Of a DNA stretch of 64,000 bases, positions 28,318 through 41,048 are shown piece by piece (position 1 is the first letter of the stretch; every line of letters starts with the position of its first letter). The notes under the pieces are model-generated. The model searched no databases. It saw only the letters and a program-made list of their open reading frames with translations, and was not told the DNA's origin. This DNA comes from a virus (taxonomy: Duplodnaviria; Caudoviricetes): the IMG/VR virus record IMGVR_UViG_2724679353_000001, positions 1 to 64,000 of that record. One strand, given 5' to 3'. The translations under genes were made by a program, and so were the position numbers.

Positions 28318-29150
28318 GCAGATGCTCCCGTTTATCAATGTTAGGGCTGAACCATAGGCATTCTATTTTGGTGACCGTGCCGCCCATACCAGCGCTGGCC
28401 TGTGCTGATTTCGTTTCCTTACGCCATCCGGCCAGCATGTCGTTATACAATTCGCTGTCATAACCAGAAATGATCGACATCCCTTTCAATTTTCTGACCG
28501 GCTCGAGTAATTCAATATGGTCTTGCTCGGTCATTTCGTGGCGATATGAATAACCGGTTGGTTTCCAGCGTTGGCGCGTTTCTGGTAAATATGGCGCATC
28601 AATGTAATTCAAAGTGTTATCAGTATCATGATCCAGTAACACCTGAACGGCTGGGCGGTTCTCTATCAACACACCAAGTAAACGCGAACCAATGGCAGCT
28701 AAATTATCAGGATAAGACGCCCATAACTGCTGGGCTGTCGAATATTCTCTTTTGGTATCAGTCCTAAACCCTGATTTATTGGCTGTGGCCGACGCTGAAC
28801 TAAATCCCATTGTGGCCTTAATTACCGTCCTGCGGGCCTGTTCCAATTCATCATCAATAGGCTCATAGGCAAAGTTAAACTCTTCGCGGCTATACGGTGT
28901 CAGTACACATAAATCACGTAACCGTATATTCATTACTGGATCTTGCAGCACTCGGAATAGGTTCACGATTTCGCCATCAAGATCATTATAAACCTCCGCG
29001 TGGGAGCGGGCCTTTCTCAATAGAACGGATGCCGCCCCCCCCGAACGGCTCAACATAGCAACGGTGAGCAGGGAAAAAACTGGTTATCCATTTCGCTAAT
29101 CGGAATTTTCCGCCGTGATATCTGATGACCGGATGTTTTATCTCTAACAT
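28310..29150 (-). pseudogene. D12-class DNA adenine methyltransferase, frameshifted in a G8 tract
   Basis: MLEIKHPVIRYHGGKFRLA..YVEPFGG from 29150; continues in another frame after G8 at 29035-29042; motif IV reads DAPY. Confidence 0.8.
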
Positions 29151-29491
29151 CAGTTTCCCTCCTGCACAAAAAAACCAGCGGCTTGAATAGCCCCATGAAC
29201 TACAACTATTGGAATTACTTTGGCATCAGGCATAAATTCAGATGCAGCCGTGATGCCTATATTTGGCAACACGATAGGCTGGCGTAGCTTCTCTTCTACT
29301 GCATTATATTTCCCCTGCCACTCCAAACACTCCCGCTCGTAGTGCTTTGCTGTACGCCGGTTCTTATTGGCTGAGGCCACCAGCTCCGCTATACGATCAG
29401 CTATGCTGTTAAGCACCTCACTTTCACGCGGTTCTACTCTCTCGGCCGCTGAACGAATTGCAGCAATCATGCCATCGGTTGATATATTCAT
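29150..29491 (-). CDS. Hypothetical (Ead/Ea22-like position) protein
   Basis: Overlaps neighbours; preceded by AGAGGCGAGACCA box. Confidence 0.65.
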   Translation of the reverse strand: MNISTDGMIAAIRSAAERVEPRESEVLNSIADRIAELVASANKNRRTAKHYERECLEWQGKYNAVEEKLRQPIVLPNIGITAASEFMPDAKVIPIVVVHGAIQAAGFFVQEGN

Positions 29492-29739
29492 TTGGTCTCG
29501 CCTCTGTGGTCTCTGCGGTCGCGCCAGTAATTTAAGCGCTCTTTAAAAAATTCCCGGTAATGCACCGGCACCCGTTCAATCGCTTCAAGTACCTGAGCGC
29601 GGTTGGTCCTGCGCTCGTACAGGTTTTTGATTAAGCCGCTGGCTCTCAAATCAAGATTTAGCTTTTCTTGGTATTCCTGAGGCCAGAGGCAAATGTTGTA
29701 CGGGAGTCCGGGCGGGAGATAATCCGATTGCCCGGTCAT
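29488..29739 (-). CDS. Hypothetical protein
   Basis: RBS GGGAG; in the early right operon. Confidence 0.65.
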   Translation of the reverse strand: MTGQSDYLPPGLPYNICLWPQEYQEKLNLDLRASGLIKNLYERRTNRAQVLEAIERVPVHYREFFKERLNYWRDRRDHRGETK

Positions 29740-29743
29740 GGTA

Positions 29744-30124
29744 TTAACTCCCCATGCCTACCGTGCTCATCAGTTGATTTATTCGGGATACTCGCAAGCA
29801 GTACGCCAGCTCCTTGTCATCAAATGGCATTCTGGCGGGCTTGGTTCGGGGTTCGCTTTTGTTGCGTTTTACTTGCGTGTCAGAGAATCGGAAAAAATCC
29901 TCTGAGATACTGTTGAGGGTGTATTGAGTCTTTCGACCATTGCGGCGGGTAATGTCTGCGTGGGGTGATCGAACCATACCCTGCACTCGGTAGCGCAAAA
30001 CGCTAATCGGCATTTCAGCATTAGGAAATTTTAAAGTAATAGCCTCGATAATCTGGCTGTAGTTCATGCTTTGGCCCAGCATAACCTCTGCCAATTCACG
30101 GGTAGTTAGTTCACGTTTTTTCAT
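29744..30124 (-). CDS. Hypothetical basic, winged-helix-like protein
   Basis: After the helicase; preceded by AGAGGCAAGACC-ATG. Confidence 0.65.
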   Translation of the reverse strand: MKKRELTTRELAEVMLGQSMNYSQIIEAITLKFPNAEMPISVLRYRVQGMVRSPHADITRRNGRKTQYTLNSISEDFFRFSDTQVKRNKSEPRTKPARMPFDDKELAYCLRVSRINQLMSTVGMGS

Positions 30125-30168
30125 GGTCTTGCCTCTTTTGGGGTGACTTAAGCGCTGGTCAGGCGCGC

Positions 30169-31542
30169 TTAAAATTTTGGTGTTGAATAGTGTTTTTCTT
30201 TGGCCGGTGGCCTTGATGCCTCTTTTGCCATTCGGCTGGCTTCTTTTGCCACCAGTTGATCCACCGGTAGAAAGTGGCCGTTTTTAAATTCCTGATAAAC
30301 GGTACCAGGCTCGCCAAATCGGTTTTTGGTTACTATGGCCTCAGCAAATCTTGCTGCCGGACTATCTGCGTTATAAACCGCTTCTCGATACAGCATGATG
30401 ATGCTGTCGGCGTCCTGCTCGATTGAACCTGAGTCCCTGAGGTCGGAACTGATTGGCCTGCGGCTACCTGGTGGCCGTTCATCCACTTTTCGCGACAACT
30501 GGCTCAGTGCAAAAATCGGGGTATTTATCCGACCGGCCAGCGTTTTTAATCCGCGTGAAATGATGCCGATAGACAGGTCATTACGCTCCGCCTTTGGCTT
30601 GGTAATCAGGCCAAGATAATCAACCATCACCATTCTCAGCTTTGGGTACCGGCGCTTGTGCGTTTCTGCGATAGCCCGTATCTGATCGATGGTTAGCTCA
30701 CTGGCATCAACGATCCAAATATCACGACCATTCAATGCCTGTAGCGCGGAGTTAATACGCGCCCAGTCCTCATCACATAACGTTTTAGGGTCGCGTAATT
30801 TAGACACTGGCAAGTTACCAGCACCGGCAACGGAACGTTCCACCATCTGTAGGGAAGCCATTTCCATGCTGAATATCAGCGCACCACCGCCGTTCTGTGT
30901 AGCACCCTCAACAATCTTTAATGCAAACTCAGTCTTACCCATACCCGGCCGACCAGCGATGACAACCAAGTCCTGAGGGTTAAAGCCGCCCGTTATTGCA
31001 TCCAGCTCGACAATGCCGGTACGCAGGTTCATTGACTCAACTTCGCCATTCATCCGCTTATCTAGCGTATCCATGAAGCCGGGCAACAAGTCATTTAGGT
31101 GAACAGGGATGATGCCGCCACTGTCTGCCGTCATATCGATCAGTTGTGTTACCGCACCCTGTATCACCTGATCGCGCTGTTCCTGATTGTTAGCCCCTCG
31201 GATGCCATCAGCAGCGGTCTGGAATAATGCGGTCATAGTTCGGCTGTACCAGGTCTTACGGGCATGCGCGGCATAGCCTTTTAGGTTCGCTACGTTTCCC
31301 GGCATACGGACAATTTCAGACAGAGTGGCCAGACTATTTCCGCCCAACGCCTCACTGACAAACAGGACATCGATCAGCCCTTTAGTCAGTGCCTGCTTTT
31401 TAATTTCCGCATACGCAGAACGGTATATTCTTATGCTGAATGCTTCCTCTGGTAGCGTGGCTATTACCTCCAGCGCATCAGGGGTAGAGCCGCCATAGAG
31501 CAGACCAGATAAAATTGCCGCTTCCAATTCTTGAGGCTTCAT
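30169..31542 (-). CDS. dnaB: Replicative DNA helicase
   Basis: AGRPGMGKT, FSMEM, VDYLGL, LSQLSR and SGSIEQDAD motifs. Confidence 0.95.
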   Translation of the reverse strand: MKPQELEAAILSGLLYGGSTPDALEVIATLPEEAFSIRIYRSAYAEIKKQALTKGLIDVLFVSEALGGNSLATLSEIVRMPGNVANLKGYAAHARKTWYSRTMTALFQTAADGIRGANNQEQRDQVIQGAVTQLIDMTADSGGIIPVHLNDLLPGFMDTLDKRMNGEVESMNLRTGIVELDAITGGFNPQDLVVIAGRPGMGKTEFALKIVEGATQNGGGALIFSMEMASLQMVERSVAGAGNLPVSKLRDPKTLCDEDWARINSALQALNGRDIWIVDASELTIDQIRAIAETHKRRYPKLRMVMVDYLGLITKPKAERNDLSIGIISRGLKTLAGRINTPIFALSQLSRKVDERPPGSRRPISSDLRDSGSIEQDADSIIMLYREAVYNADSPAARFAEAIVTKNRFGEPGTVYQEFKNGHFLPVDQLVAKEASRMAKEASRPPAKEKHYSTPKF

Positions 31543-32585
31543 AGCGCACCATCACGAGTTTTTCTCAAGACTTCCGGTCTCATCAGATAATCGAAATTTG
31601 CACACCAGTGCGAACCATCATCACCACCGAAATAATACTCTGACGCACGTTCGCGAAATGCCTCGAAGTAGCCCTGGAATGCCTCGAGGTCTTGGGTTTT
31701 CAGGTATTGGAGTAATTCGCGGATAGCGTGTTTACGATCCTGATCAATTTCGGCCGGTGGTAAAACATCGCCGAATACACGGTTATACGCAGCAATGACC
31801 GCATCACAATCAATCCGCCCGGCAGACTCAGACCATGCGCTGGCATCAGCCAGATAACCATCGAATCGGTTTACACGGCAGATATTCGCAGGTTTGGCAT
31901 ACTTGCCGTTGCGGGGTTTCCAGGTGCTGACCACCCAATGAGTCACCAATTGCAAATCAGCCAATGAGTAGGCTTTCCGTGATTTGGTGGCATGCAACAA
32001 TATTTCGTACGGTCGAGGGTCTTTGCACCGGGTATGGGTGAGTTCGTTGTAATACGCCAAAGCCCTTTCAGCATCAGCGAGGATGTTTTCCGTTTCCCCT
32101 TGAGGGGTAAGGGGTGTTTTATTCTTTGTAGTATTCTTTGTAGTATTCTCTTGTAACATTTGGTCATTCTGACTAGATGTGATCTTGTCATTCTGACCTG
32201 CTCCCAATTGGTCATTTTGACCAGATGCATTTGTAGAATTAAGCAACTCCAATTGGTCATAATTTATCGAATACCACTTAGTGCGGTTATAGGGATCACT
32301 GAGTAACACTTTATGTAACTGACCAACTGAAATTAGTTTCATTTCCAGCAGGTTTGCCAACGTGCGTTTAATCGTACTATCAGACCAAAAGCCTAATTCA
32401 TCGGCCCATTCAGCCGCCGATTTATAAAACCACTTCCGGCCTTCATGACGGTGATCCGACCGACATAGCCAATAATGAATTTGCTGAACGAGTATGGCTT
32501 CATTGAGGCCAATCTCTTTTGCAAGCGAGGGTAGTACTTGCAGCGGAGGTTCATTAATTAACAGCTTGGAGCTATTCATCTTCAA
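31539..32585 (-). CDS. Replication initiator (lambda O-like)
   Basis: N-terminal wHTH (IGLNEAILVQQIHYW), internal iterons, NFDYLMR C-terminus. Confidence 0.85.
   Translation of the reverse strand: MKMNSSKLLINEPPLQVLPSLAKEIGLNEAILVQQIHYWLCRSDHRHEGRKWFYKSAAEWADELGFWSDSTIKRTLANLLEMKLISVGQLHKVLLSDPYNRTKWYSINYDQLELLNSTNASGQNDQLGAGQNDKITSSQNDQMLQENTTKNTTKNKTPLTPQGETENILADAERALAYYNELTHTRCKDPRPYEILLHATKSRKAYSLADLQLVTHWVVSTWKPRNGKYAKPANICRVNRFDGYLADASAWSESAGRIDCDAVIAAYNRVFGDVLPPAEIDQDRKHAIRELLQYLKTQDLEAFQGYFEAFRERASEYYFGGDDGSHWCANFDYLMRPEVLRKTRDGAL
32119..32262. repeat. Replication origin iterons inside the O-like gene
   Basis: GTCATT(C/T)TGAC units with 24-bp period near 32160, 32184 and 32208, partial copy at 32253, plus AT-rich TATTCTTTGTAG x2. 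Confidence 0.75.
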
Positions 32586-32806
32586 ACCCCCAGCGCTTCC
32601 GCTATTTGCCGACAGGCAGACTGATAATCGTCGGGCGATAGATTTAATTTACGCAGCTCTGTTTTTTTCTGTTCGTACTGCTCCCAGATACTCATAGCGG
32701 CAACCAGGCGCCCTTCAAAAATTGGCGCAACATCAGCTTTGCTGGCTGGCTGTCCGTTCAACATGAACCCGTTGCAGTACGTGATTTTATCGATAGATGT
32801 AAGCAT
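32582..32806 (-). CDS. Hypothetical protein upstream of the initiator
   Basis: Coupled to the O-like gene; preceded by AGAGGCAAGACCA. Confidence 0.7.
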   Translation of the reverse strand: MLTSIDKITYCNGFMLNGQPASKADVAPIFEGRLVAAMSIWEQYEQKKTELRKLNLSPDDYQSACRQIAEALGV

Positions 32807-32822
32807 TGGTCTTGCCTCTGTT

Positions 32823-33287
32823 TTATACGGTGGTCAGCCGTTGGTGTTGTGGTCTGATTGCGTGAAGTGCCGCAACAGCGCCCGATATTCTTTGTGACAT
32901 GTCACAGCCATCTAATAGAACCGCGCTAATTGCTGCGGCAAACTCTCTGCTGGCAATCGAAACCAAATAATTAACGGTCTCGCCATTCACTCTGGCCCGC
33001 CGTTCTGCCGGGAGCGCAGCTTTAAGTACCGGTGATAATTCCAAGACCTTTCGCATTGATGCTTTTGAATCCCCGCGCAGCCAACGAAATAACTGCTGCC
33101 GGTTGTTGTTGATAGACTTCCAATCAGCGTTGCCCTGCTCGTCTTCAATGGGAGTGAGGCGTACTGAATCCGTATTGATACTAAGCAAGAAAAACATTCT
33201 GCTGATCTCGATAGCTACATGCTCCTGCCCCCGTTCTGCTGCCCATGCCTGTACTTCAGCTTTAAGGGCGTTAACTTGTTGTTCCAC
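32823..33287 (-). CDS. CII-like / YdaT-family regulator
   Basis: Downstream of cro; NNRQQLFRWLRG motif; GTG start with AGGAG RBS. Confidence 0.75.
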   Translation of the reverse strand: MEQQVNALKAEVQAWAAERGQEHVAIEISRMFFLLSINTDSVRLTPIEDEQGNADWKSINNNRQQLFRWLRGDSKASMRKVLELSPVLKAALPAERRARVNGETVNYLVSIASREFAAAISAVLLDGCDMSQRISGAVAALHAIRPQHQRLTTV

Positions 33288-33324
33288 GTTGCGTCTCCTG
33301 TCGCAGGAAATTGATTATTGATAA

Positions 33325-33579
33325 TCAGATTTGTGTGTGGGGTTTGTTTAGACTAACTTCAGGTTCCGGATGCGGAAATAAGTCAGGTAAATCAGGGCGA
33401 ACTTGATGCGCTTGTACCTCACCATTGGTAGCTTCAACGAGGAATTTAACATTTCTCGGGGCTACCTTTGCTTTGCCGCATAACCATTTTTGAACGGCCG
33501 CCTGAGTAACGCCGCATGCCTCCGCTAGTCTCTTTTGAGTGCCAACAATTTGAATTGCCGTCTTAATTACATTATCCAT
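33325..33579 (-). CDS. cro: Cro-like (YdaS) regulator
   Basis: GTQKRLAEACGVTQAAVQKW HTH; RPDL motif; divergent from cI. Confidence 0.85.
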   Translation of the reverse strand: MDNVIKTAIQIVGTQKRLAEACGVTQAAVQKWLCGKAKVAPRNVKFLVEATNGEVQAHQVRPDLPDLFPHPEPEVSLNKPHTQI

Positions 33580-33583
33580 TTCA

Positions 33584-33674
33584 ATCACCTTTGTTGTATT
33601 TAATTGCAAATATACAACCAAGGTTGTTTTTAAGCAACAACAATAGTGATTTGACCGGGTATAACTAAGGTTGT
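33584..33674. promoter_or_regulatory. OR operator region (pR/pRM)
   Basis: ACAAC-N4-GTTGT-like sites at 33584, 33614, 33637 and 33661. Confidence 0.8.
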
Positions 33675-33691
33675 ATTTTGCGAGGATGGGA

Positions 33692-34405
33692 ATGACACTT
33701 GCACAAAGATTGAAAGTAGCCATGAAGGAATCTGGGCTAACTCAGGCTGCACTAGCTGAGAAGGCTGGAGTTTCACAAGCTGCTATTCAAAAAATAACAT
33801 CCGGTAAAAGCCAGAGCACCACTAAGCTACTGGAAATTTCCCGCGCACTCCAGGTACGCCCGGAATGGCTTGGAGAAGGGATTTTGCCGATGAAAGAATC
33901 GACTAAAACAATAAATCAGGAATCAAATATTCCTTCTGAGAATGATTGGGGGAATATTATACCTTGGGATAGTCAGTGTCCAATTCACGAAGACGAGGTC
34001 GAAGTGCCATTCTTACGTGATATTGAACTTGCTGCCGGTGATGGTAGCTTTTGTGATCAAGACTACAATGGTTTTAAACTTCGCTTTTCGAAATCGACCT
34101 TGCGGCGAGTTGGTGCTCAGAAAGAGAATGTCATTTGCTTTCCAGCCCATGGAAATAGCATGGAGCCGATTCTACCAAACGGTACGACAGTAGCTGTTGA
34201 TTGTGCAAATAAAAAAATTATCGATGGTAAAATATATGCAATCAATCAAGACGGATTAAAACGTCTTAAACTTTTATATCGTATGCCAGGAAATAAGCTA
34301 AGTATCCGCAGCTTTAATAAAGCCGAGCACCCAGATGAAGATGCTGACGGAGAAACCGTAGAAATTATTGGCCGCGTGTTTTGGTGGTCAGTTCTGGATT
34401 ATTGA
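33692..34405 (+). CDS. cI: CI repressor (HTH + S24 peptidase)
   Basis: HTH; LAAGDG cleavage region; GNSMEP serine and LKRLK lysine; exact start uncertain (33686 or 33692). Confidence 0.92.
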   Translation: MTLAQRLKVAMKESGLTQAALAEKAGVSQAAIQKITSGKSQSTTKLLEISRALQVRPEWLGEGILPMKESTKTINQESNIPSENDWGNIIPWDSQCPIHEDEVEVPFLRDIELAAGDGSFCDQDYNGFKLRFSKSTLRRVGAQKENVICFPAHGNSMEPILPNGTTVAVDCANKKIIDGKIYAINQDGLKRLKLLYRMPGNKLSIRSFNKAEHPDEDADGETVEIIGRVFWWSVLDY

Positions 34406-34472
34406 TAGCTCTAACTTCTAAGTAGTCCAATGAGGGTAGGAGTGTCACTCAACCTAAGAGTTAAAGGAAAAT

Positions 34473-35629
34473 ATGAAGATATTCGCTGAGAAATTAAGAG
34501 CGCACTCTGATCACGTAAAAAAAGTAAGCCATCATTGTTCTACCGAAGAAACGACTAAACAAGCATTAATATTGCCAATGTTAGATATTCTTGGCTTTAA
34601 CTCTTATGACCCAACGAAAGTTAAAGCAGAATATGGCGCTGATTTCCCTGGTGTTAAAGTAGGTGAACGAGTCGACTATGCCCTATTTTGCCATGGTGTT
34701 CCTGTCATGTTTATTGAGGCCAAGGGCTATAATCAGAAACTTGATAACCATTGCCCTCAGCTTTCTAGATACTTTAACGCGACACCTGAGGTCACTATTG
34801 CAGCTATAACTAATGGCACCCATGGCGTTTCTTTACCGACCTTAAGCAAAGAAATATTATGGATGCCTCTCCATTCCTACAGATTGATGTAGATGAAGCA
34901 TCGGACTCTGATGCTCATCAGCTATATCAATTCCGTCACGACCAGTTCCAACCAGAAGCACTTCGAACCTTAGCTGAAGAAAGCATATACTTATCAGCAT
35001 TTACTGATGTTATCAGTGATAGTTTAAGGAATGTTGATGCTGATTTTGTCCGCTATGTTGCAAGTCGCTCTAGCGTACAACGACAGTTGAACCAAAAGTT
35101 TCTCGACACAATTACACCACTAGTAAAAATGGCAGTAGAACGAGCTGTTAGTGCAATGGTAGTTTCTGGGCTATCAATGGCTTCCAACAAAGACAAAGAT
35201 GTTGAAGTCTCACTAGCACCAGAGCTGAAAAAAATAGATGAAACAGCGTCAGTCGTGGATCCTGAAAATTCAAATATAGTTACTACGCATAACGAAAGGT
35301 TATTTTTTAGTAATATTCAACTATTACTTGGTGAACAGGCTGATATTTCAGCAAAAGACACAGCCAGTTATTACAATATTCTTTGCCAGGGAAAATCAAA
35401 CCGTTGGGTTGTACGCTATTTTGATAGTAAACAGCGACCATCGATAATTTTACCAATTGAATTAGATGAAAAAGCTATTGCAGAAGTTGAGCGAGCGGGA
35501 CTTGAGCTAGCTCCAGGCAATCAAATTATAATAGATCGCCCTGAAAATATTTTGCGATTATCCGGGCTAATCTTGGATTCATACAATTACTGTATGGACG
35601 ATGATAATTTCAGAAACAAGAAAAAATAG
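34473..35629 (+). pseudogene. HsdR N-terminal (PD-(D/E)xK) domain protein split by a 1-bp deletion
   Basis: EETTK..LILPML..LGF, VDYAL, FIEAK, QLSRYF, ITNG; adding one base near 34822 restores ITNGT-x-WRFFTDL into ORF 34859-35629. Confidence 0.75.
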
Positions 35630-35798
35630 TAATCCATTTCCTGCCCCTTCTCATTGGAGGGGCGCATACATGAATCCCTACGTCATAAACGCCTACCTAA
35701 ATTCAGCCTTCATTACTTGATTAACCTCTAAAAAATTCAAAAAAGCACAACCAAACTAAAGCTAAGAAAACACAAATAAAACCAATGCGCCATAAAAT

Positions 35799-35840
35799 AC
35801 AACCAAAGTTGTTGACACAAATACAACTAAAGTGTTTAAT
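35799..35840 (+). promoter_or_regulatory. pL promoter with OL operators
   Basis: TTGACA (35812)-17 bp-TTTAAT (35835); ACAACCAAAGTTGT at 35799 and ACAACTAAAGTGTT at 35823. Confidence 0.85.
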
Positions 35841-35869
35841 TGTTTTCATCAACACGGCACAGCAGCCGA

Positions 35870-35932
35870 TGCGAACAGGCAGGACGCCCACGAAGTAGCT
35901 GCCGGTGGCATACGAAACACCGGATGATTCGC
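35870..35932 (+). ncRNA. Structured pL leader (three-way junction candidate)
   Basis: GCGAA/TTCGC closing GGCAG/CTGCC and CCGGTG/CACCGG stems. Confidence 0.45.
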
Positions 35933-35987
35933 AATTTAGGTTTAGTACGTTCTGACAGCCCGGAAAGACGGCACCAAATTACAGACG

Positions 35988-36016
35988 TAAAAAAACCCAC
36001 CGAAGTGGGCTTCTTT
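35988..36016 (+). terminator. tL1-like terminator
   Basis: CCCAC-cgaa-GTGGG followed by CTTCTTT. Confidence 0.65.
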
Positions 36017-36132
36017 ACCCCGGATCACCGACCAAAGTTAACCGGGAATTGCTAACGGGGACCAACCCGTTAACAGAGGCAAGACCAACGGCTTACGCCA
36101 CCAATCTTACAACCAGTATATCAGGAGTTGCT

Positions 36133-36468
36133 ATGACAGCACTACAGATAACCACCACGCTCTATATCCATGTTAATCCGCATTCAGCATTGAAAGATAA
36201 TCGCTTTATCGTGTGTACCTGTGACATGTCACAGTCCGCGCCAGCCTATGCGTTACTCGAAACCCGCGAAATCACGTTGGCGTTCGACGAACCCGATCCA
36301 TTTGAAATCATCGGTAAGCAGGTTGATTCACTACGCGCTCAGAAAGAACGTGTCGCGGCGGAATCATATCGGCATCAGTTGCTTATTGATGATCAGATTC
36401 AGGCGTTGCTCTGCATCGAGCACACCATGCCAGCAAACGTCTCTGACGATAGCGACATTCCTTTTTAA
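36133..36468 (+). CDS. Hypothetical early protein with SSB-like acidic tail (DDSDIPF)
   Basis: AGGAG RBS; first gene of the pL operon. Confidence 0.7.
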   Translation: MTALQITTTLYIHVNPHSALKDNRFIVCTCDMSQSAPAYALLETREITLAFDEPDPFEIIGKQVDSLRAQKERVAAESYRHQLLIDDQIQALLCIEHTMPANVSDDSDIPF

Positions 36469-36523
36469 TTAGCCCTACATCAAAGACCAAGATCCGCTTA
36501 AAAACCAAAGAGGCAAGACCAAC

Positions 36524-38725
36524 ATGACTGTATTTATTTGCTTATTCAAGCCGAAAAAAGCGGCCGTCAAAAATGGGGCTATCCCACTGGTTATAGCGCT
36601 GGAGGCCATTAATAAGAAAATGGCATCCGCACTGGCCATCGCTAAATTGTGGGAGGCCTACCCCGCCGCTGGCGATAACTTCGCTGATCCGAAAATCTGT
36701 GAGGATTCAGTCGGGCAACCGCGCCCTGTGGTCGGTGAATTCGACGAACAGTTCGCCCAGGAGAATACTTTTGATGGCAAAGTATGGACGCCAAATACCG
36801 CGGCATCGCCAGAAGATGAGGACGATAACGACGGCGACGAACAAGGTGATGATTCTGGTTTAGTGAACTACGCCAAGCTGGGCATCGATGTCAAAGTTGG
36901 CAAAATCCTAATGTATGACTTACGTGACATCGATACGCACGAACTATCACTGGTATATGACCTGGTTAACGACGATGAGGGCGATGCCGGGCTACGTTCC
37001 ATTATAACCGCATTAGCAGGCATACCGGCTATAGGGGCAATGTACCAAGAATCGGTCAAAGAGCTGATCGACGCTATCAATGTGAAATTCCCGAACACAC
37101 CTCAATTCCCAGAAGTTCGAAAATTCGCTCAAAAATGGGTTGATGAACCCAATAAGCGGGACGAGTTAACCGGGACGAAAAAAGTCACCCGCATAGATAC
37201 ACCGGCCCCTGATGCGCCAATTAAACGCAGCTTTGAACACACATATAAAACGCTTGATCTCGAAGTTGCTCTCGCCTTGGTACCGGCTGATTTTAACTGC
37301 TGGGAAATCCATTCAGCAGAAATGAAGCAAGCAAAAGAGTTGATGGACAGTAATGATGATGCCTGGCGCAAATGGTCAACCGAATTACGCGTTCGTAGCG
37401 ATGCGTTGTCTATTCCGCGTGAAACCATCTTTGAGATCATTCGCGTGGGTAAAAAGAAACCTATCTTCCTCACCAATGCCGCCGCCAGAAAAGAATTTAT
37501 CGCACAATGTATCGCCGCCAAAGGGCCGCAGCCTGCGGTTAAAAATTTGGGTGACGGTAAGTTCTCTATTGATGGTCTGATCGGTGGTGAACCCCAACCG
37601 GCGGCAAATAGTGAAACAAAACTGGCTCTGGTTGCTAATTCTGAACCAAAAACTGAAACAGAACCGCCAATTGTTGCAACAGAACAGGAAAAACCCGTAC
37701 AGGAACCCATCACCGATAACACCGCTCAACAGGCTAAAGAGACGTTGGATCAGTTGGGTTATGGCGTTTATGCATCGGTTGATGAGAAGCCGGCAGAGGT
37801 TATTGAGACGACGCAACCAAGCACGGTTGCTAGCGTAGAAGTTACTGTTGATGAGTTCCAACACCGTGCCGGGTTGATTGAACAAGAGATTGCGCAGAAG
37901 TCCCCTCAGGAACAAGAAAACCTGCATATTTGGAAATCGGTACAACGCACCGACCCGCGCTTTACCAAACCTGTAGAGGGCGCGGGATATGTCGCTACCA
38001 GCATTAACGCTGAATATATGTTTATGCGGGCCACGGAAGTATTCGGCCCCATCGGTGAGGGTTGGGGCTATACCATTCTTGAAGAAAAGATGCTGCCAGG
38101 CGCGCCAATGTCCGAGGCTATTTACGACGATAACAAGAAATACATTGGCAACCGGCTTATTCGTGATGCCGATGGCACATTGATATGCGAACAGAATCAC
38201 TCAATCAAAATTCAATTCTGGTATTCAATGGAGGGAGAAATACGTGGCGAGATCGAAAGCTACGGAGCCACCCCTTACATGTATAAAACCAATAAAGGAA
38301 TTAAGGCTGATAACGAGGTAATCAAAAAAAGCCTCACGGACGCCATTAAGAAAGCGCTATCTATGCTGGGCTTTAGCGCTGACGTATGGCTCGGCATGCA
38401 CGATAACCCCGAATATATGGCAGAAAATAACATTGAGTTTGCTATTAAAAATGCCAGTGAAAAAGCCGGTGACTCAGTACGTCTGCGCAAAGAGCTGGAT
38501 GATAAATTAACCAAAGTCGGCAATACCATTTCGAATGCCGTCACCACCAATGAAGTGAATAAGATATATAGCACCATTACGCGAGAAATCGACGTACACC
38601 GCAAAGATGCCGACGCCAAAGCTGACAAAGAATACGCCAACTACCTCAAAAGCCGCCTGCTTGCATTACATCGCTTAACCGAACAACGGGTTGCCGAACT
38701 TAACGCACAGGAGCAAACAGCATGA
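36524..38725 (+). CDS. Recombination protein: RecE-like N-terminal region plus Rad52/Sak-like annealase domain
   Basis: C-terminal RATEVFGPIGEGWGY...KKSLTDAIKKALSMLGF; acidic P/E-rich linker. Confidence 0.65.
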   Translation: MTVFICLFKPKKAAVKNGAIPLVIALEAINKKMASALAIAKLWEAYPAAGDNFADPKICEDSVGQPRPVVGEFDEQFAQENTFDGKVWTPNTAASPEDEDDNDGDEQGDDSGLVNYAKLGIDVKVGKILMYDLRDIDTHELSLVYDLVNDDEGDAGLRSIITALAGIPAIGAMYQESVKELIDAINVKFPNTPQFPEVRKFAQKWVDEPNKRDELTGTKKVTRIDTPAPDAPIKRSFEHTYKTLDLEVALALVPADFNCWEIHSAEMKQAKELMDSNDDAWRKWSTELRVRSDALSIPRETIFEIIRVGKKKPIFLTNAAARKEFIAQCIAAKGPQPAVKNLGDGKFSIDGLIGGEPQPAANSETKLALVANSEPKTETEPPIVATEQEKPVQEPITDNTAQQAKETLDQLGYGVYASVDEKPAEVIETTQPSTVASVEVTVDEFQHRAGLIEQEIAQKSPQEQENLHIWKSVQRTDPRFTKPVEGAGYVATSINAEYMFMRATEVFGPIGEGWGYTILEEKMLPGAPMSEAIYDDNKKYIGNRLIRDADGTLICEQNHSIKIQFWYSMEGEIRGEIESYGATPYMYKTNKGIKADNEVIKKSLTDAIKKALSMLGFSADVWLGMHDNPEYMAENNIEFAIKNASEKAGDSVRLRKELDDKLTKVGNTISNAVTTNEVNKIYSTITREIDVHRKDADAKADKEYANYLKSRLLALHRLTEQRVAELNAQEQTA

Positions 38726-39222
38726 GCAATACAGCCATCGCATTAGCCGCAGACCTTTTCAAACTGCAACAATTAGTTGAGTCCTCAGAGGAACTCACGC
38801 CAGAAATGATCGCCGATACGCTAGAGGATTTAGAGGGTGCTTTGGGGGATAAGCTGGATGCAACCTATGTCTTTGTTCGCAACCTTGAAGGCCAGGCTAA
38901 GACCTGTGATGAGGAAGCTAAACGCCTGGCTGAGCGGAAAAGGTCATTCGAGAATCGGGCCAAATCGATCAAACAGTATGTCCTTAACTGCTTATTGGCC
39001 GCAGATAAGAACACACTTAAAACACCGTATAACACATTCACCGCGCGTAAAGGTGTGGCCAGTGTGGTGATCGACAATGAAGACTTATTGCCCAGTGAAT
39101 TGGTGACAGTGCAAACCATCGTAGCGCCCGATAAAAAGGCCATCAAGGAAGCCATAGAAAATGGTGTTGATGTTAAAGGTGCGCATATTGAGATAGGCAA
39201 TCGTAGCCTGCAGGTTCGCTAA
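38722..39222 (+). CDS. Siphovirus Gp157-family (Gam-like) protein
   Basis: IADTLE, EAKRLAERK, PDKKAIKEAI..G..VKGA motifs. Confidence 0.85.
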   Translation: MSNTAIALAADLFKLQQLVESSEELTPEMIADTLEDLEGALGDKLDATYVFVRNLEGQAKTCDEEAKRLAERKRSFENRAKSIKQYVLNCLLAADKNTLKTPYNTFTARKGVASVVIDNEDLLPSELVTVQTIVAPDKKAIKEAIENGVDVKGAHIEIGNRSLQVR

Positions 39223-39267
39223 TTTCATCCCGCCCCAAACCAACGGGGCATTACTGAGGCAACACCC

Positions 39268-39450
39268 ATGCTAAAGCGTACTCACAAACGCGGTGAAAAG
39301 TCCTATATCACGCTCCCCGATGGACGAACGGGAACTATCCACACCGATCGCCGTTGTGATGTTCACTACGATTTTCCGGTAGATGTTCGAATTAGCAGCA
39401 CTCAACCGCAAGAAGTCGCTGAAAAGTTGATTTTGCATAATCAGAAATAA
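39268..39450 (+). CDS. Divergent CsrA-like protein
   Basis: 60 aa; ML..T...GE...I and (F/A)P..V pattern aligns with CsrA; CsrA Arg44 position not conserved. Confidence 0.5.
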   Translation: MLKRTHKRGEKSYITLPDGRTGTIHTDRRCDVHYDFPVDVRISSTQPQEVAEKLILHNQK

Positions 39451-39499
39451 TCAACCCGCCCCGCTAGCATGGTGGTAATCCAACACCAGGGAAACCACT

Positions 39500-39706
39500 A
39501 TGCAGCCATGGCAACCGGGCAAGCGCCTATTAACCGACTTCGATATTAAGATCGGCAAGTTATCAGCCAGTGTACGGAAACAACAACTCACCGACCACGA
39601 TATACAGCGGGCCTGTTCTGCGACCGACAGAGCTATAACCCAAATGATACAGGGGCAAGACCATGAAAAACGACCACGACATAATCACCAAAGAGGAGAT
39701 GATTGA
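39500..39706 (+). CDS. Hypothetical protein
   Basis: 68-aa ORF in the pL operon before xis. Confidence 0.55.
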   Translation: MQPWQPGKRLLTDFDIKIGKLSASVRKQQLTDHDIQRACSATDRAITQMIQGQDHEKRPRHNHQRGDD

Positions 39707-39899
39707 GTTGACCGGTCATCACTACAAAACCAAACAATGTGACTCTTTACGCCGCTCGGGGATCTTTTTTATCCGACGTCCGGACGGACACCCGAAAACC
39801 ACTTGGGGCCATTTTTTGAATCCAGTCAGTTTGCGCGGTAAGCCGCTGGAGCCGGAAAAAGAAGAACCCAATTTCGAGGCCATGAACAGTGGCCGGTAA
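39663..39899 (+). CDS. Excisionase-like protein (DUF4224)
   Basis: ELTG....KQ...L...GIFF..RPDGHP; EPNF tail; overlaps int. Confidence 0.8.
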   Translation: MKNDHDIITKEEMIELTGHHYKTKQCDSLRRSGIFFIRRPDGHPKTTWGHFLNPVSLRGKPLEPEKEEPNFEAMNSGR

Positions 39900-40905
39900 A
39901 CGCAAGAACGCCGCCGATAACTGGATGCCCTCACGGGTATTCCGTGGCCCCAGTGCTTATAACTTCAAACACCCGGACGGACGCACGATTAGACTGTGCG
40001 CACTTAACGCTACACAGGCAGAAGTCTGGGTTCATTATGAGAAGTTCATTAATGAGAAAAAAGACAAATCAACGTTAAATACCTTAGTTGAGTCTTTTTT
40101 CCGATCCGTTGATTTCATTGATCTGGCAACCGAGACACAAAAAGACTATCGAAAATACGCCTCAAAATTATTACCGGTTTTCGGTGCCATGCACCCCGAT
40201 AATATAAAACCTGAACATGTCAGAAAGTATATGGATAAAAGAGGGTTGAGCAGCAGGACACAGGCAAACAGGGAAAAAACGTTTATGTCGCGGGCCTATA
40301 GATGGGGATATGAACGGGGATTAGTGAAAGGCAATCCCTGCAAGGGAGTTAAGCAATTTAAAGAGGAATCGAGGGAACGCTATATTACAGATGAAGAATA
40401 TAACGCTTTATATCAGACTGCACCCGACATCGTACGAGCAGCAATGGAAATAGCGTATCTGTGTCTGGCGAGGCAAGCCGATGTGCTTTCATTGCGCAAG
40501 GATCAATTTAGAGAATCGGGGATATATATCAGGCAGGGTAAGACAGGGGCAAAACAAATCAAGGAATGGTCACAGCGCTTACGTGACGCTATCGCACTGG
40601 CAGAATCCCTGCCCTTACAACCCGGTATCAGCAGTGTATACATCATCCGCCAACGCACCGGACTGCGGTATACGCGCGACGGCTTTAATAGCCGATGGCG
40701 CAAGGCCAAAGAAGCAGCAAAAGAGGCACACCCTGAATTGGATTTTAATTTCACCTTCCATGATCTGAAAGCCAAAGGTGTTTCTGATCTTGAGGGTTCA
40801 CTCAGTGAGAAGCAGGCGATATCAGGGCATAGAAATATGGGGCAAACGGCGCGATATGACCGGAAAATAAAAGTTGTGCCGGTGGTAGGCAATCAGAAGA
40901 AGTGA
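39889..40905 (+). CDS. int: Tyrosine integrase of prophage 1
   Basis: ARQADV, FHDLKAK, GH..M..T.RY catalytic motifs; adjacent to att. Confidence 0.93.
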   Translation: MAGKRKNAADNWMPSRVFRGPSAYNFKHPDGRTIRLCALNATQAEVWVHYEKFINEKKDKSTLNTLVESFFRSVDFIDLATETQKDYRKYASKLLPVFGAMHPDNIKPEHVRKYMDKRGLSSRTQANREKTFMSRAYRWGYERGLVKGNPCKGVKQFKEESRERYITDEEYNALYQTAPDIVRAAMEIAYLCLARQADVLSLRKDQFRESGIYIRQGKTGAKQIKEWSQRLRDAIALAESLPLQPGISSVYIIRQRTGLRYTRDGFNSRWRKAKEAAKEAHPELDFNFTFHDLKAKGVSDLEGSLSEKQAISGHRNMGQTARYDRKIKVVPVVGNQKK

Positions 40906-40929
40906 TTTTTTATGCGTTAGCTGGATTTT

Positions 40930-40965
40930 ATGTTCCTAACGCATCTTCCTAACATCTTCCTAAAT
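40930..40965. repeat. Putative integrase arm-type sites
   Basis: TTCCTAA x3 (40933, 40946, 40957); same motif near the left att. Confidence 0.6.
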
Positions 40966-41048
40966 GTGATTTCAGGCACAAAAAAAACCCGCCTCACGGC
41001 GGTTAACGACATACTCATACTACTTTGTTTTACTTATACTATTTTCCA

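Follow-up and report, generated by a model that had tools for sequence, protein, structure and literature searches.

A ZF40-like temperate phage of Yersinia, present as a prophage in the 64,000 nt of DNA analysed here (the window), raises the question of why one and the same short tag heads several early genes of both early operons, each initiated independently, and of what might read it. The 13-mer AGAGGCAAGACCA occurs in the window in four exact copies and two copies with one mismatch, all confined to 29493-39663 and each on the transcribed strand. At up to two mismatches ten matches are found, compared with 1.22 ± 1.13 in shuffled sequences (maximum 4; 0 of 100 shuffles reached 10). Within the whole 74,757-base record, GGCAAGACC is present only at five of these six exact and one-mismatch sites, and GACCA followed by ATG precedes long open reading frames in the early region only. 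The copies and the genes next to them are as follows:

29493-29505, minus strand: tag with one mismatch (A7 to G, wobble-compatible), 1 nt before the ATG of a 113-aa gene (29150-29491)
30124-30136, minus strand: perfect tag, overlapping the ATG of a 126-aa gene that follows DnaB (29744-30124)
32807-32819, minus strand: perfect tag, directly before the ATG of a 74-aa gene (phrog_2465, 32582-32806)
36075-36087, plus strand: perfect tag without a start codon (ACG follows); its complement is the anti-tag of a predicted minus-strand sRNA
36509-36521, plus strand: perfect tag, 2 nt before the ATG of a 733-aa exonuclease/recombinase gene (36524-38725)
39255-39267, plus strand: degenerate tag with three mismatches, directly before a 60-aa gene
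39268-39450, plus strand: the 60-aa gene (phrog_2482), by its family profile a remote CsrA-superfamily member
39651-39663, plus strand: tag with one mismatch (A3 to G), overlapping the ATG of a xis-like gene (DUF4224, 39663-39899)

Six copies lie 0-2 nt from a start codon, while the copy at 36075 precedes ACG instead, the actual gene start nearby being ATG 36133 with its own AGGAG. The number and positions of the perfect and one-mismatch copies, the existence of the degenerate copy, the start-codon register with its single exception and the confinement to early genes had all been noticed in the preliminary description of this DNA, and all of them held. The 74-aa gene is translationally coupled to an O-like initiator and DnaB, and the tag at 29493-29505 sits within the 3' end of a theta-like gene. 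According to our analysis, the 13-mer is best read as a private ribosome-binding tag, consisting of the Shine-Dalgarno (SD) element GAGG, a lineage-specific 3-nt spacer and GACCA.

The tag is common to relatives in Yersinia, Rahnella, Rouxiella and Rosenbergiella and to the laboratory phage ZF40, generally in about 4-8 copies. It is always in sense orientation and near-uniform inside one genome. AGG-N3-GACCA stays constant, and the spacer variant is particular to each lineage. Among 33 viral loci, 27 carry 2-8 copies at no more than one mismatch, and five of the remaining six contain a variant of their own five to seven times (AGAGGAAAGACCA, AGGAAAGACCA or GAGGTATGACCA). ZF40 has eight copies of AGGCAAGACCA, all at 1.8-10.9 kb of its 48 kb genome. 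The degenerate copy at 39255-39267 corresponds to a one-mismatch copy, TGAGGCAAGACCA, in at least 15 relatives. Conserved tags often stand beside unrelated flanking sequence.

The start-less copy at 36075 falls within a conserved, structured RNA gene on the minus strand. Because this copy lies in the opposite-strand gene, the predicted RNA carries the exact complement of the tag. Its elements are:

35989 to about 36108, minus strand: predicted antisense sRNA, about 118-120 nt long, related to IsrB but larger (Rfam match, own model and fold)
36115-36123, minus strand: candidate extended -10 element of the sRNA, TGATATACT, conserved as TATACT or TATAAT
35989-36009, minus strand: intrinsic terminator as judged from the sequence, with a 5-bp G+C stem, a 4-nt loop and then seven T

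From 5' to 3', the RNA is predicted to consist of a stem H0 in which the UUGGUC half of the anti-tag is located, an anti-SD stretch that is exposed, a hairpin H1 with a UUGGUC loop, a hairpin H2 whose loop includes UUUGGUCGGU, and the terminator. The Rfam model RF01386 (isrB) matches 35990-36071 on the minus strand with 38.4 bits (gathering score 35), the terminator being the best-aligned part, and our own model (R1) scores 134.7 bits on the gene. The alifold consensus energy is -29.9 kcal/mol for the minus strand versus -3.8 for the plus strand, the single-sequence minimum free energy of the window's sRNA is -60.1 versus -35.9, and canonical pairs fill 157 versus 100 of 170, 142 versus 122 of 153 and 175 versus 142 of 187 cells. 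Compensatory changes are seen in 9 of 30 pairs and also accompany the conservation of the terminator (alignment A1), and the anti-tag is the most invariant section of the alignment. The gene was found in every tag-bearing lineage. Full-length matches were obtained in 26 of 26 sources in one search and 14 of 20 in another, including L025 from outside the training set (73 bits) and L026, L027 and L042 (57 bits); four loci with the exonuclease and no tags (L030, L037, L038 and L043) had no full-length match.

The 5' end of the sRNA was placed by the position of the putative -10 element, and in all ten lineage representatives the anti-tag is preceded, at a distance of 24-30 nt, by TATACT or TATAAT. 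The -35 of this candidate promoter is poor (2-4 of 6). Against the antisense reading proposed below, a consensus promoter scan listed no minus-strand promoter at the gene, and the predicted fold pairs the UUGGUC half of the anti-tag in H0, leaving about 5 nt free.

We posit, with a probability of roughly 0.5, that the predicted antisense sRNA masks the shared start sites of the tagged early genes. The RNA would be transcribed, as IsrB is in Salmonella lysogens, and its exposed anti-SD stretch would nucleate pairing with a tag, upon which the weak, G-U-rich 5' stem would open and a duplex of 13-16 nt would form from the SD to the start codon. Initiation would thereby be blocked jointly at the exonuclease, xis, the 74-aa/O/DnaB unit and the 126-aa and 113-aa genes, and in cis the sRNA would also be antisense to the leader of the leftward operon. 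Predicted cofolding energies (ddG) are -13 to -30 kcal/mol at six good tags versus 0 to -8 at 13 non-tag starts, which is expected from the complementarity and is thus not independent evidence. The individual values are -30.4 kcal/mol at 32807-32819, -21.0 at 39651-39663, -20.5 at 36509-36521, -20.4 at 29493-29505 and -13.3 at 30124-30136, and only -8.6 at the degenerate tag 39255-39267.

The most widely fixed internal deviations of the tag speak for this pairing, as A3G at xis (27 loci) and A7G at the 113-aa gene (29 loci) are both A-to-G changes, after which a G-U pair with the sRNA would be retained. Against it, the tally over all deviations is mixed, with about six compatible and five disruptive events, a disruptive C-to-G in Rouxiella separates the sRNA copy from all targets, and four of the eight tags of Rahnella L040 have a spacer mismatch to the sRNA. 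The ACG after the 36075 copy is replaced by ATG in L009, L021, and the L024, Rahnella and Rouxiella lineages, so that the complementarity to the other tags could be a by-product; judging from these sequences, this copy serves, or once served, as an ordinary start.

A second, sense-strand feature of the early region are hairpins with CTGACCA, GACCAA or ACCGA loops. Between 29001 and 40000, eight hairpins with RACCR loops were counted, all on the strand of the local operon, compared with 2.4 ± 1.6 in a first-order Markov control (maximum 7 in 200 simulations). Five upstream hairpins had been described before, and all five are in place, although the stem at 32827-32841 has only 4 bp and the sequence at 36053-36072 folds far better as minus-strand RNA; the hairpin at 29595-29616 is an addition to them.

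29595-29616, minus strand: GAGCGC-AGGACCAACC-GCGCTC, a sixth hairpin, within the theta-like gene
30148-30172, minus strand: core GCGC-CTGACCA-GCGC, at the DnaB stop codon; the loop is invariant and the stems vary among relatives
32827-32841, minus strand: ACGG-CTGACCA-CCGT, before the tag of the 74-aa gene
39232-39249, plus strand: GCCCC-AAACCAAC-GGGGC, before the 60-aa gene; the loop of relatives has GACCAA, and a G-T closing pair in two loci is workable on the plus strand only
39615-39633, plus strand: GTTCTG-CGACCGA-CAGAGC, before the xis tag, with a plus-strand T-G wobble; L024, L033, L025 and L036 retain the ACCGA loop on a different stem

The CTGACCA heptaloop is kept while its stems change (GCGC/GCGC, ACGG/CCGT, CGAGC/GCTCG and GCAC/GTGC). 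For the hairpins with all three kinds of loop, either the CsrA-superfamily protein or the UUGGUC loops of the sRNA may be the reader.

That the 60-aa protein binds GACCA in loops and at start sites and so co-regulates the tagged genes was the proposal of the preliminary description, and we now regard it as unlikely. One part of it stands: the data agree with a single phage-private reader that acts on RNA where translation of replication-linked, recombination and excision genes begins. CsrA/RsmA targets likewise combine a loop motif with one at the start site, theirs being GGA rather than GACCA, and the 60-aa gene itself has both hairpin and tag. CsrA-like character is borne out at the level of the family, whose profile yielded 34 matches among 1.84 billion representatives, three of them above the Pfam CsrA cut-off (43.8, 36 and 49.3 bits), and the predicted structure has five beta strands (mean pLDDT 75). 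The window's own protein, on the other hand, gave no Pfam match at E up to 10 and has Ser in place of the Arg of the conserved R(E/S)E segment, an Arg that its CsrA-positive relatives possess. Among hairpins and tags, only the CTGACCA-loop hairpins follow the distribution of the gene (31 of 33 loci with it, none of the seven tag-bearing loci that lack it), which amounts to a single independent evolutionary contrast. The expected co-occurrence of box and gene failed: seven loci without the gene (L026, L027, L031 and L039-L042) keep 4-8 tags each, and it is likewise absent from two virus records and from the whole genomes of three hosts, where the best match (E 0.0015) covers 27 residues inside a 418-aa frame. 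Of the two observations that had been named as speaking against the proposal, boxes in relatives lacking the gene and stems lacking covariation, it is the first that was found, in these seven loci. A reading of GACCA alone would also leave the uniform 3-nt spacer unexplained. The better candidate reader, on present sequence comparisons, is the predicted antisense sRNA whose gene includes the 36075 copy. Very improbable, in our view, is that the hairpins serve the early transcripts as antitermination signals (nut- or boxB-like) or as signals for RNA processing and stability, the tags being unrelated ordinary starts. With short G+C stems and loops of 6-7 nt that are conserved, in sense orientation in both early operons, they resemble boxB-type hairpins, one of them lies directly at the DnaB stop, and an N-like gene is not evident after the leftward promoter; yet a phage has five to six of these sites rather than a single one in each operon, a boxA-like partner does not come in support, relatives in Rahnella and Rouxiella keep the operon layout without hairpins, and neither the tag nor its lineage variants would be explained.

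A more serious rival, to which we assign a minor but real chance, is that the tag is a portable start-site cassette with no dedicated trans-acting reader. With or without a hairpin, it would be an efficient ribosome-binding site at module boundaries, both spread and kept uniform by recombination within one phage gene pool, and the sRNA would act on the leftward leader in cis only. Tags coincide with mosaic junctions, and recombination alone could be a sufficient cause of this pattern: four sequence clusters occur upstream of the exonuclease start, two alternative genes follow the post-DnaB tag (20 and 7 instances), and the ACGG-CTGACCA-CCGT hairpin with its tag heads the 74-aa gene in the window and the 60-aa homologue in ZF40. 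Tag variants also follow host groups. Thirteen nucleotides are, however, a very short stretch on which to base homologous exchange, several lineages conserve start-less copies in their leftward leader, and the cassette gives no reason for an invariant GACCA at the start codon across lineages with different spacers; a perfect 13-nt complement of SD and start on an expressed RNA would be hard to maintain without effect. We see next to no chance that the 13-mer is instead a DNA operator for a phage repressor, as are the oriented 13-bp stoperators of mycobacteriophage L5-type phages. It is asymmetric, repeated and always oriented with transcription, but its fixed register to the start codon and the SD inside it point to translation, its invariant and variable positions match the logic of SD and spacer, and no candidate protein co-varies with it. 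Both 13-bp repressor sites and short conserved boundary sequences, the latter proposed for mosaic phages, appear in the part of PMC3029335 available; lambdoid boundary sequences likewise lie at gene boundaries where modules are exchanged, the tag differing by its strict start-codon register, its SD and its complementary RNA gene.

Among known RNAs, IsrB-1 and IsrB-2 of Gifsy-2 and Gifsy-1 in Salmonella (RF01386) are homologous over the 3' two-thirds (hairpin, UUUGGUCGGU-containing loop and terminator) and share the antisense position just upstream of an exonuclease gene in a lambdoid prophage. IsrB was detected as an 88/94-nt RNA antisense between sbcA and its neighbour in both Gifsy-1 and Gifsy-2, and the accessible part of PMC2330248 states no function for it. 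At its 5' end the predicted sRNA would extend about 30 nt further, and it is this extension that holds the anti-tag; our model matches Gifsy-2 over positions 64-120 only. Since the early genes of Gifsy-2 are without tags and IsrB works there nonetheless, the older role of the family may have been cis-antisense only, which counts against the masking of tags in trans and is in line with the cassette.

The c4 RNA of P1 and P7 (immI) is processed from its own target transcript, and it is not homologous to the sRNA; no Rfam C4 match was found in 29000-41000 at E up to 1. According to the sections of PMC12197685 at hand, c4 pairs around a ribosome-binding site and blocks translation, as is proposed here, its target being the ant mRNA as opposed to five to eight genes in two divergent operons. 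P22 sas and BTP1 STnc6030 are likewise antisense RNAs encoded by prophages, with control over phage genes or superinfection, listed in a table of that review as acting in cis on one overlapping gene, unlike the multi-target trans action posited for the present RNA. Our literature search found no paper describing a tag-complementary sRNA.

With the tag shared by the early genes and its complement lying in the sRNA gene, one RNA probably represses recombination, excision and replication-linked genes jointly. Differences in c4 sequence lead to heteroimmunity between related phages (PMC12197685, in part). As the spacer of the tag differs between lineages and is near-uniform within a genome, it may here, too, define the specificity of an RNA-based immunity.

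The 13-mer ribosome-binding box at early-gene starts (AGAGGCAAGACCA, hereafter the tag) occurs in the immunity and early region of a lambda-like prophage, which is arranged as follows:

33671-34405, plus strand: S24-type repressor
Minus strand: YdaS/Cro-like gene; YdaT gene
Minus strand, next in order: 74-aa gene, O-like initiator, DnaB, 126-aa gene, theta-like gene, 113-aa gene
Plus strand, in order: two insert genes, 500-nt non-coding stretch, phrog_2479 gene, 733-aa exonuclease
Plus strand, after the exonuclease: Gp157/Gam-like gene, 60-aa gene, 68-aa gene, xis, int

Between the repressor and the leftward promoter, the two insert genes (34473-35629) encode an HSDR_N-domain protein and a phrog_4225 endonuclease; they occupy the position held by rex in lambda and are possibly a defence insert. 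The 733-aa exonuclease (36524-38725) looks like a fusion, its N-terminal part matching RecE/ExoVIII-type proteins and residues about 464-700 matching annotated RAD52-like annealing proteins of Pseudomonas and Vibrio phages. A DNA polymerase III theta-like protein is encoded at 29488-29739 (Pfam, 39.4 bits), and Pectobacterium phage ZF40 carries two such genes.

The preliminary description had reported four perfect and two one-mismatch copies of the tag, and our counts agree, with all six lying within 29493-39663 on the strand of the local operon. Allowing up to two mismatches, 10 sites are found in the window against 1.22 in shuffled sequences, and the core GGCAAGACC occurs at five sites in the whole 74.8-kb virus record, all of them tag sites. 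The short distance to the start codon also held up, being 0-2 nt in six copies, while at 36075 the tag has ACG after it instead. GACCA directly 5' of the ATG of a long ORF is seen in the early region only. All copies are oriented with transcription, the feature on which they were compared with stoperator-type sites.

In order to follow the tag across relatives, 33 viral loci were collected through the exonuclease gene. By record name the relatives belong to Yersinia, Rahnella, Rouxiella and Rosenbergiella, and the closest cultured one is ZF40. Two to eight tag copies at no more than one mismatch are present in 27 of the 33 loci, often with flanks that are unrelated between loci, and five of the other six carry a variant of their own (AGAGGAAAGACCA, AGGAAAGACCA or GAGGTATGACCA) in five to seven copies. 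ZF40 has eight copies of AGGCAAGACCA, all inside the early 11 kb, where they mark the ZF40 counterparts of xis, of the 60-aa and 74-aa genes and of the genes following DnaB and theta. The constant part of the tag is AGG, three variable letters and GACCA. From lineage to lineage the three letters change, and among the copies of one genome they hardly vary. Such uniformity requires either a reader of the whole tag or homogenisation driven by recombination. Pairing of GACCA with rRNA as an extended Shine-Dalgarno sequence was dropped because it leaves the lineage-specific spacers unexplained. No description of the tag was found in the papers searched, those listed for the string GGCAAGACCA being unrelated, and the ZF40 genome paper uses none of the terms ribosom, Shine, motif, intergenic, hairpin or stem-loop.

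The non-coding stretch upstream of the exonuclease contains a predicted small RNA (sRNA) gene on the minus strand, to which the start-less tag copy at 36075 belongs. The Rfam model of IsrB (RF01386) matches 35990-36071 of that strand over its full length (model positions 1-87 of 87) with 38.4 bits, above the gathering score of 35 bits. According to the available text of its description, IsrB is an RNA of 88/94 nt detected in Salmonella lysogens, antisense between sbcA and its neighbour (PMC2330248). The position of our sRNA, judged from the map of the window against the IsrB table in that paper and the Gifsy-2 region, corresponds, since it lies antisense beside the sbcA/recE-type exonuclease gene of a lambdoid prophage. 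When the region was aligned for 17 distinct relatives, no part proved more invariant than the complement of the tag (the anti-tag). The consensus fold has -29.9 kcal/mol on the minus strand versus -3.8 kcal/mol on the plus strand, single-sequence energies agree in direction, and compensatory changes occur in nine of 30 pairs. Canonical pairs fill 474 of 510 pair cells on the minus strand versus 364 on the plus strand, a difference that stems from numerous G-U pairs. This count is biased towards the minus strand, where the structure was predicted; the independent plus-strand fold given above is the fairer control. At the 3' end of the gene, a G+C stem precedes a run of seven T. In all 10 lineage representatives the anti-tag is preceded, at 24-30 nt, by a TATACT/TATAAT hexamer, with an upstream TG beside this -10 element in the Yersinia types and in those of relative L024. 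The -35 element is weak, and a generic promoter scan did not list the promoter. From the fold, the terminator, the IsrB match and the conserved -10 element we infer an RNA of about 118-120 nt, extending from about 36108 to 35989.

A covariance model of this sRNA gave full-length matches in all 26 further Yersinia-type loci and in 14 of 20 sources of a second set, the 14 including lineages outside its training (73 bits in locus L025; 57 bits in L026, L027 and L042). No full-length match was obtained in four loci that carry the exonuclease and are tagless (L030, L037, L038, L043). One rearranged locus with a truncated exonuclease (L032) has retained two tags and lacks the RNA gene. In Gifsy-2, where IsrB resides, the model matches the 3' part only (positions 64-120), and the early genes are without tags; the anti-tag extension is therefore particular to the window's phage group. 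A BLAST of the region against near and distant sequences (phages, E. coli genomes) returned nothing beyond ZF40 and a 62-nt stretch of the leftward leader.

This stretch (35871-35935) lies just 3' of the leftward promoter and shares 85-95% identity with unannotated DNA of 21 phage records, among them ST64B, SfII, phiNP and YeP1-3; it also matches 1044 of 5426 complete E. coli genomes and has no Rfam match. Partial RNA reads of another strain (4+1, from three runs with the same species label, in which the prophage is absent) end near 35871-35932, and in the contig run of the same comparison only the right arm was alike, at 95-99%; these runs are uninformative on expression. The stretch is possibly an RNA element conserved in leaders. 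In many relatives the leftward leader carries a second tag, mostly lacking a start codon (L003:9366-9423, L006, L015, L024:9395-9440, L036:9070-9118), preceded by a conserved hairpin, CCACA-GCG(A/G)GAAA(A/G)-TGTGG, where the window has the 62-nt element instead.

The best explanation, with a probability of roughly one half, is in our view that an antisense sRNA of the IsrB type acts on the tag shared by the start sites. The sRNA is a perfect 13-nt complement of four tags and a wobble-compatible complement of two more. In its predicted fold a weak 5' stem rich in G-U pairs (-10.5 kcal/mol) holds the UUGGUC half of the anti-tag and leaves the anti-Shine-Dalgarno letters free. These letters would meet the Shine-Dalgarno sequence of the tag as a toehold, the 5' stem would then open, and the duplex would extend to the start codon and block initiation. 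When the sRNA was cofolded with start regions, the six good tags reached -13 to -30 kcal/mol versus 0 to -8 kcal/mol at 13 other early starts and -8.6 kcal/mol at the degenerate tag of the 60-aa gene; these energies follow from the complementarity of tag and anti-tag and are not independent evidence. It counts against the sRNA reading that some relatives use the tag copy within the RNA gene as an ordinary start, with ATG for ACG in L009, L021, L024 and the Rahnella and Rouxiella lineages. Where the ATG is present, a short upstream ORF begins behind the tag at 36075; most Yersinia loci have ACG (polymorphism, 36088-36135), and the main gene that follows has its own AGGAG and an ATG at 36133. 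The two most widespread tag deviations are wobble-compatible A-to-G changes. The wobble test of tag variants against their cognate sRNA copy was mixed and is not used as strong support. Two lineages also count against the sRNA: in Rouxiella its copy differs from its targets by a disruptive change, and in Rahnella locus L040 half of the tags differ in the spacer.

The main rivals to the sRNA reading are a start-site cassette maintained by recombination and a CsrA-like protein that reads the tag and its hairpins. The cassette has the placement of the tags in its favour, as they lie at mosaic junctions, one and the same tag being linked to several different partners upstream or downstream; such placement is expected of mosaic boundary sequences according to the available text of PMC3029335. 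We regard the cassette as a serious but rather unlikely alternative. The protein was the reader favoured by the preliminary description, which proposed that a CsrA-like phage protein, encoded by the 60-aa gene (39268-39450, plus strand, phrog_2482), recognizes GACCA in a hairpin loop and at the start site. The observation behind this proposal is confirmed and the proposal itself is partly supported: a remote relationship to CsrA and co-distribution with hairpins speak for it, and the persistence of tags where the gene is missing speaks against it. The 60-aa gene is present in 33 of 44 loci, and is absent from seven tag-bearing Rahnella/Rouxiella loci as well as from three whole host genomes and two virus records. 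The tags are therefore independent of this gene, and we judge it improbable that its product is their reader.

The relationship to CsrA emerged through intermediates. Neither the window protein (Pfam, E up to 10) nor five homologues, four from our loci and that of ZF40, matched any Pfam family, including CsrA (PF02599, cut-off 27 bits). A profile of 15 family members retrieved 34 matches from 1.84 billion representatives, and three of these (P0036, P0040 and P0048; library-wide E 2.8e-5 to 8.1e-4) pass the CsrA cut-off with 43.8, 36 and 49.3 bits. This homology places the 60-aa protein as a remote branch of the CsrA superfamily. Its AlphaFold2 monomer model has five strands (mean pLDDT 75). 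Searches with the monomer model, which are uninformative for an intertwined dimer such as the five-stranded beta core of CsrA forms, gave no Foldseek match at E <1, a best VIA-align Z of 3.9 and no CsrA chain among the matches listed. The conserved Arg after the last strand of CsrA has a role in GGA binding. At this position the Yersinia and L024 branches have Ser, and Arg is kept in L025, L036, P0018, P0036, P0040 and P0048.

All five GACC-type hairpins of the preliminary description were recovered, and a sixth lies at 29595-29616. The early 11 kb holds eight hairpins with RACCR loops against 2.4 +/- 1.6 in simulations, all on the sense strand. In the hairpins with a CTGACCA heptaloop the loop is invariant and the stems change; of the 33 loci with the 60-aa gene 31 have them, and all seven tag-bearing loci that lack the gene are devoid of them. 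This single contrast provides a lead that the 60-aa protein may act on these hairpins; equally possible partners are the UUGGUC loops of the sRNA. Rahnella and Rouxiella loci (L031:12900-12945, L040, L042:12530-12570) have a perfect hairpin of 12-13 bp around CCGGTCAGC...GCTGACCGG, which precedes the tag after the Gp157-like gene, where Yersinia phages have the 60-aa gene.

A bolder combination, which we hold to be quite improbable, is a phage-private post-transcriptional switch in two layers, a barcode anti-start-site sRNA and a CsrA-family protein retargeted to CUGACCA heptaloops instead of GGA. Through the lineage-specific 3-nt barcode the sRNA of the first layer would be an RNA immunity determinant, silencing the recombination, excision and replication units of the resident prophage and of incoming phages with the same barcode. 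Sense leaders, through their GACCAA loops, would be in competition with the UUGGUC loops of the antisense sRNA for these partners.

The nearest working analogue of the sRNA is c4 RNA of phages P1 and P7, an RNA that acts by pairing in the region of a ribosome-binding site and is the basis of heteroimmunity, as stated in the available text of a 2025 review of phage sRNAs (PMC12197685). The likeness lies in mechanism, as complementarity to the ribosome-binding region, and not in membership: at E up to 1, positions 29000-41000 gave no match to the Rfam C4 model, only isrB and sub-threshold rsmX and sR39. IsrB does not occur in the available text of that review (PMC12197685), and no function for it was found in the papers searched. 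The sRNA reading, if true, gives the IsrB family a function, and it is directly testable in the cultured phage ZF40, which has the same tag and RNA gene. The CsrA-superfamily branch without the conserved Arg, travelling together with CTGACCA hairpins, is a candidate for a retargeted RNA-binding protein. If one sRNA masks a shared tag on five to eight early genes, it would provide a compact lock on recombination, excision and replication, a post-transcriptional lock acting on top of repressor control in temperate phages, and a lineage-specific tag would then amount to a second, RNA-encoded immunity specificity.
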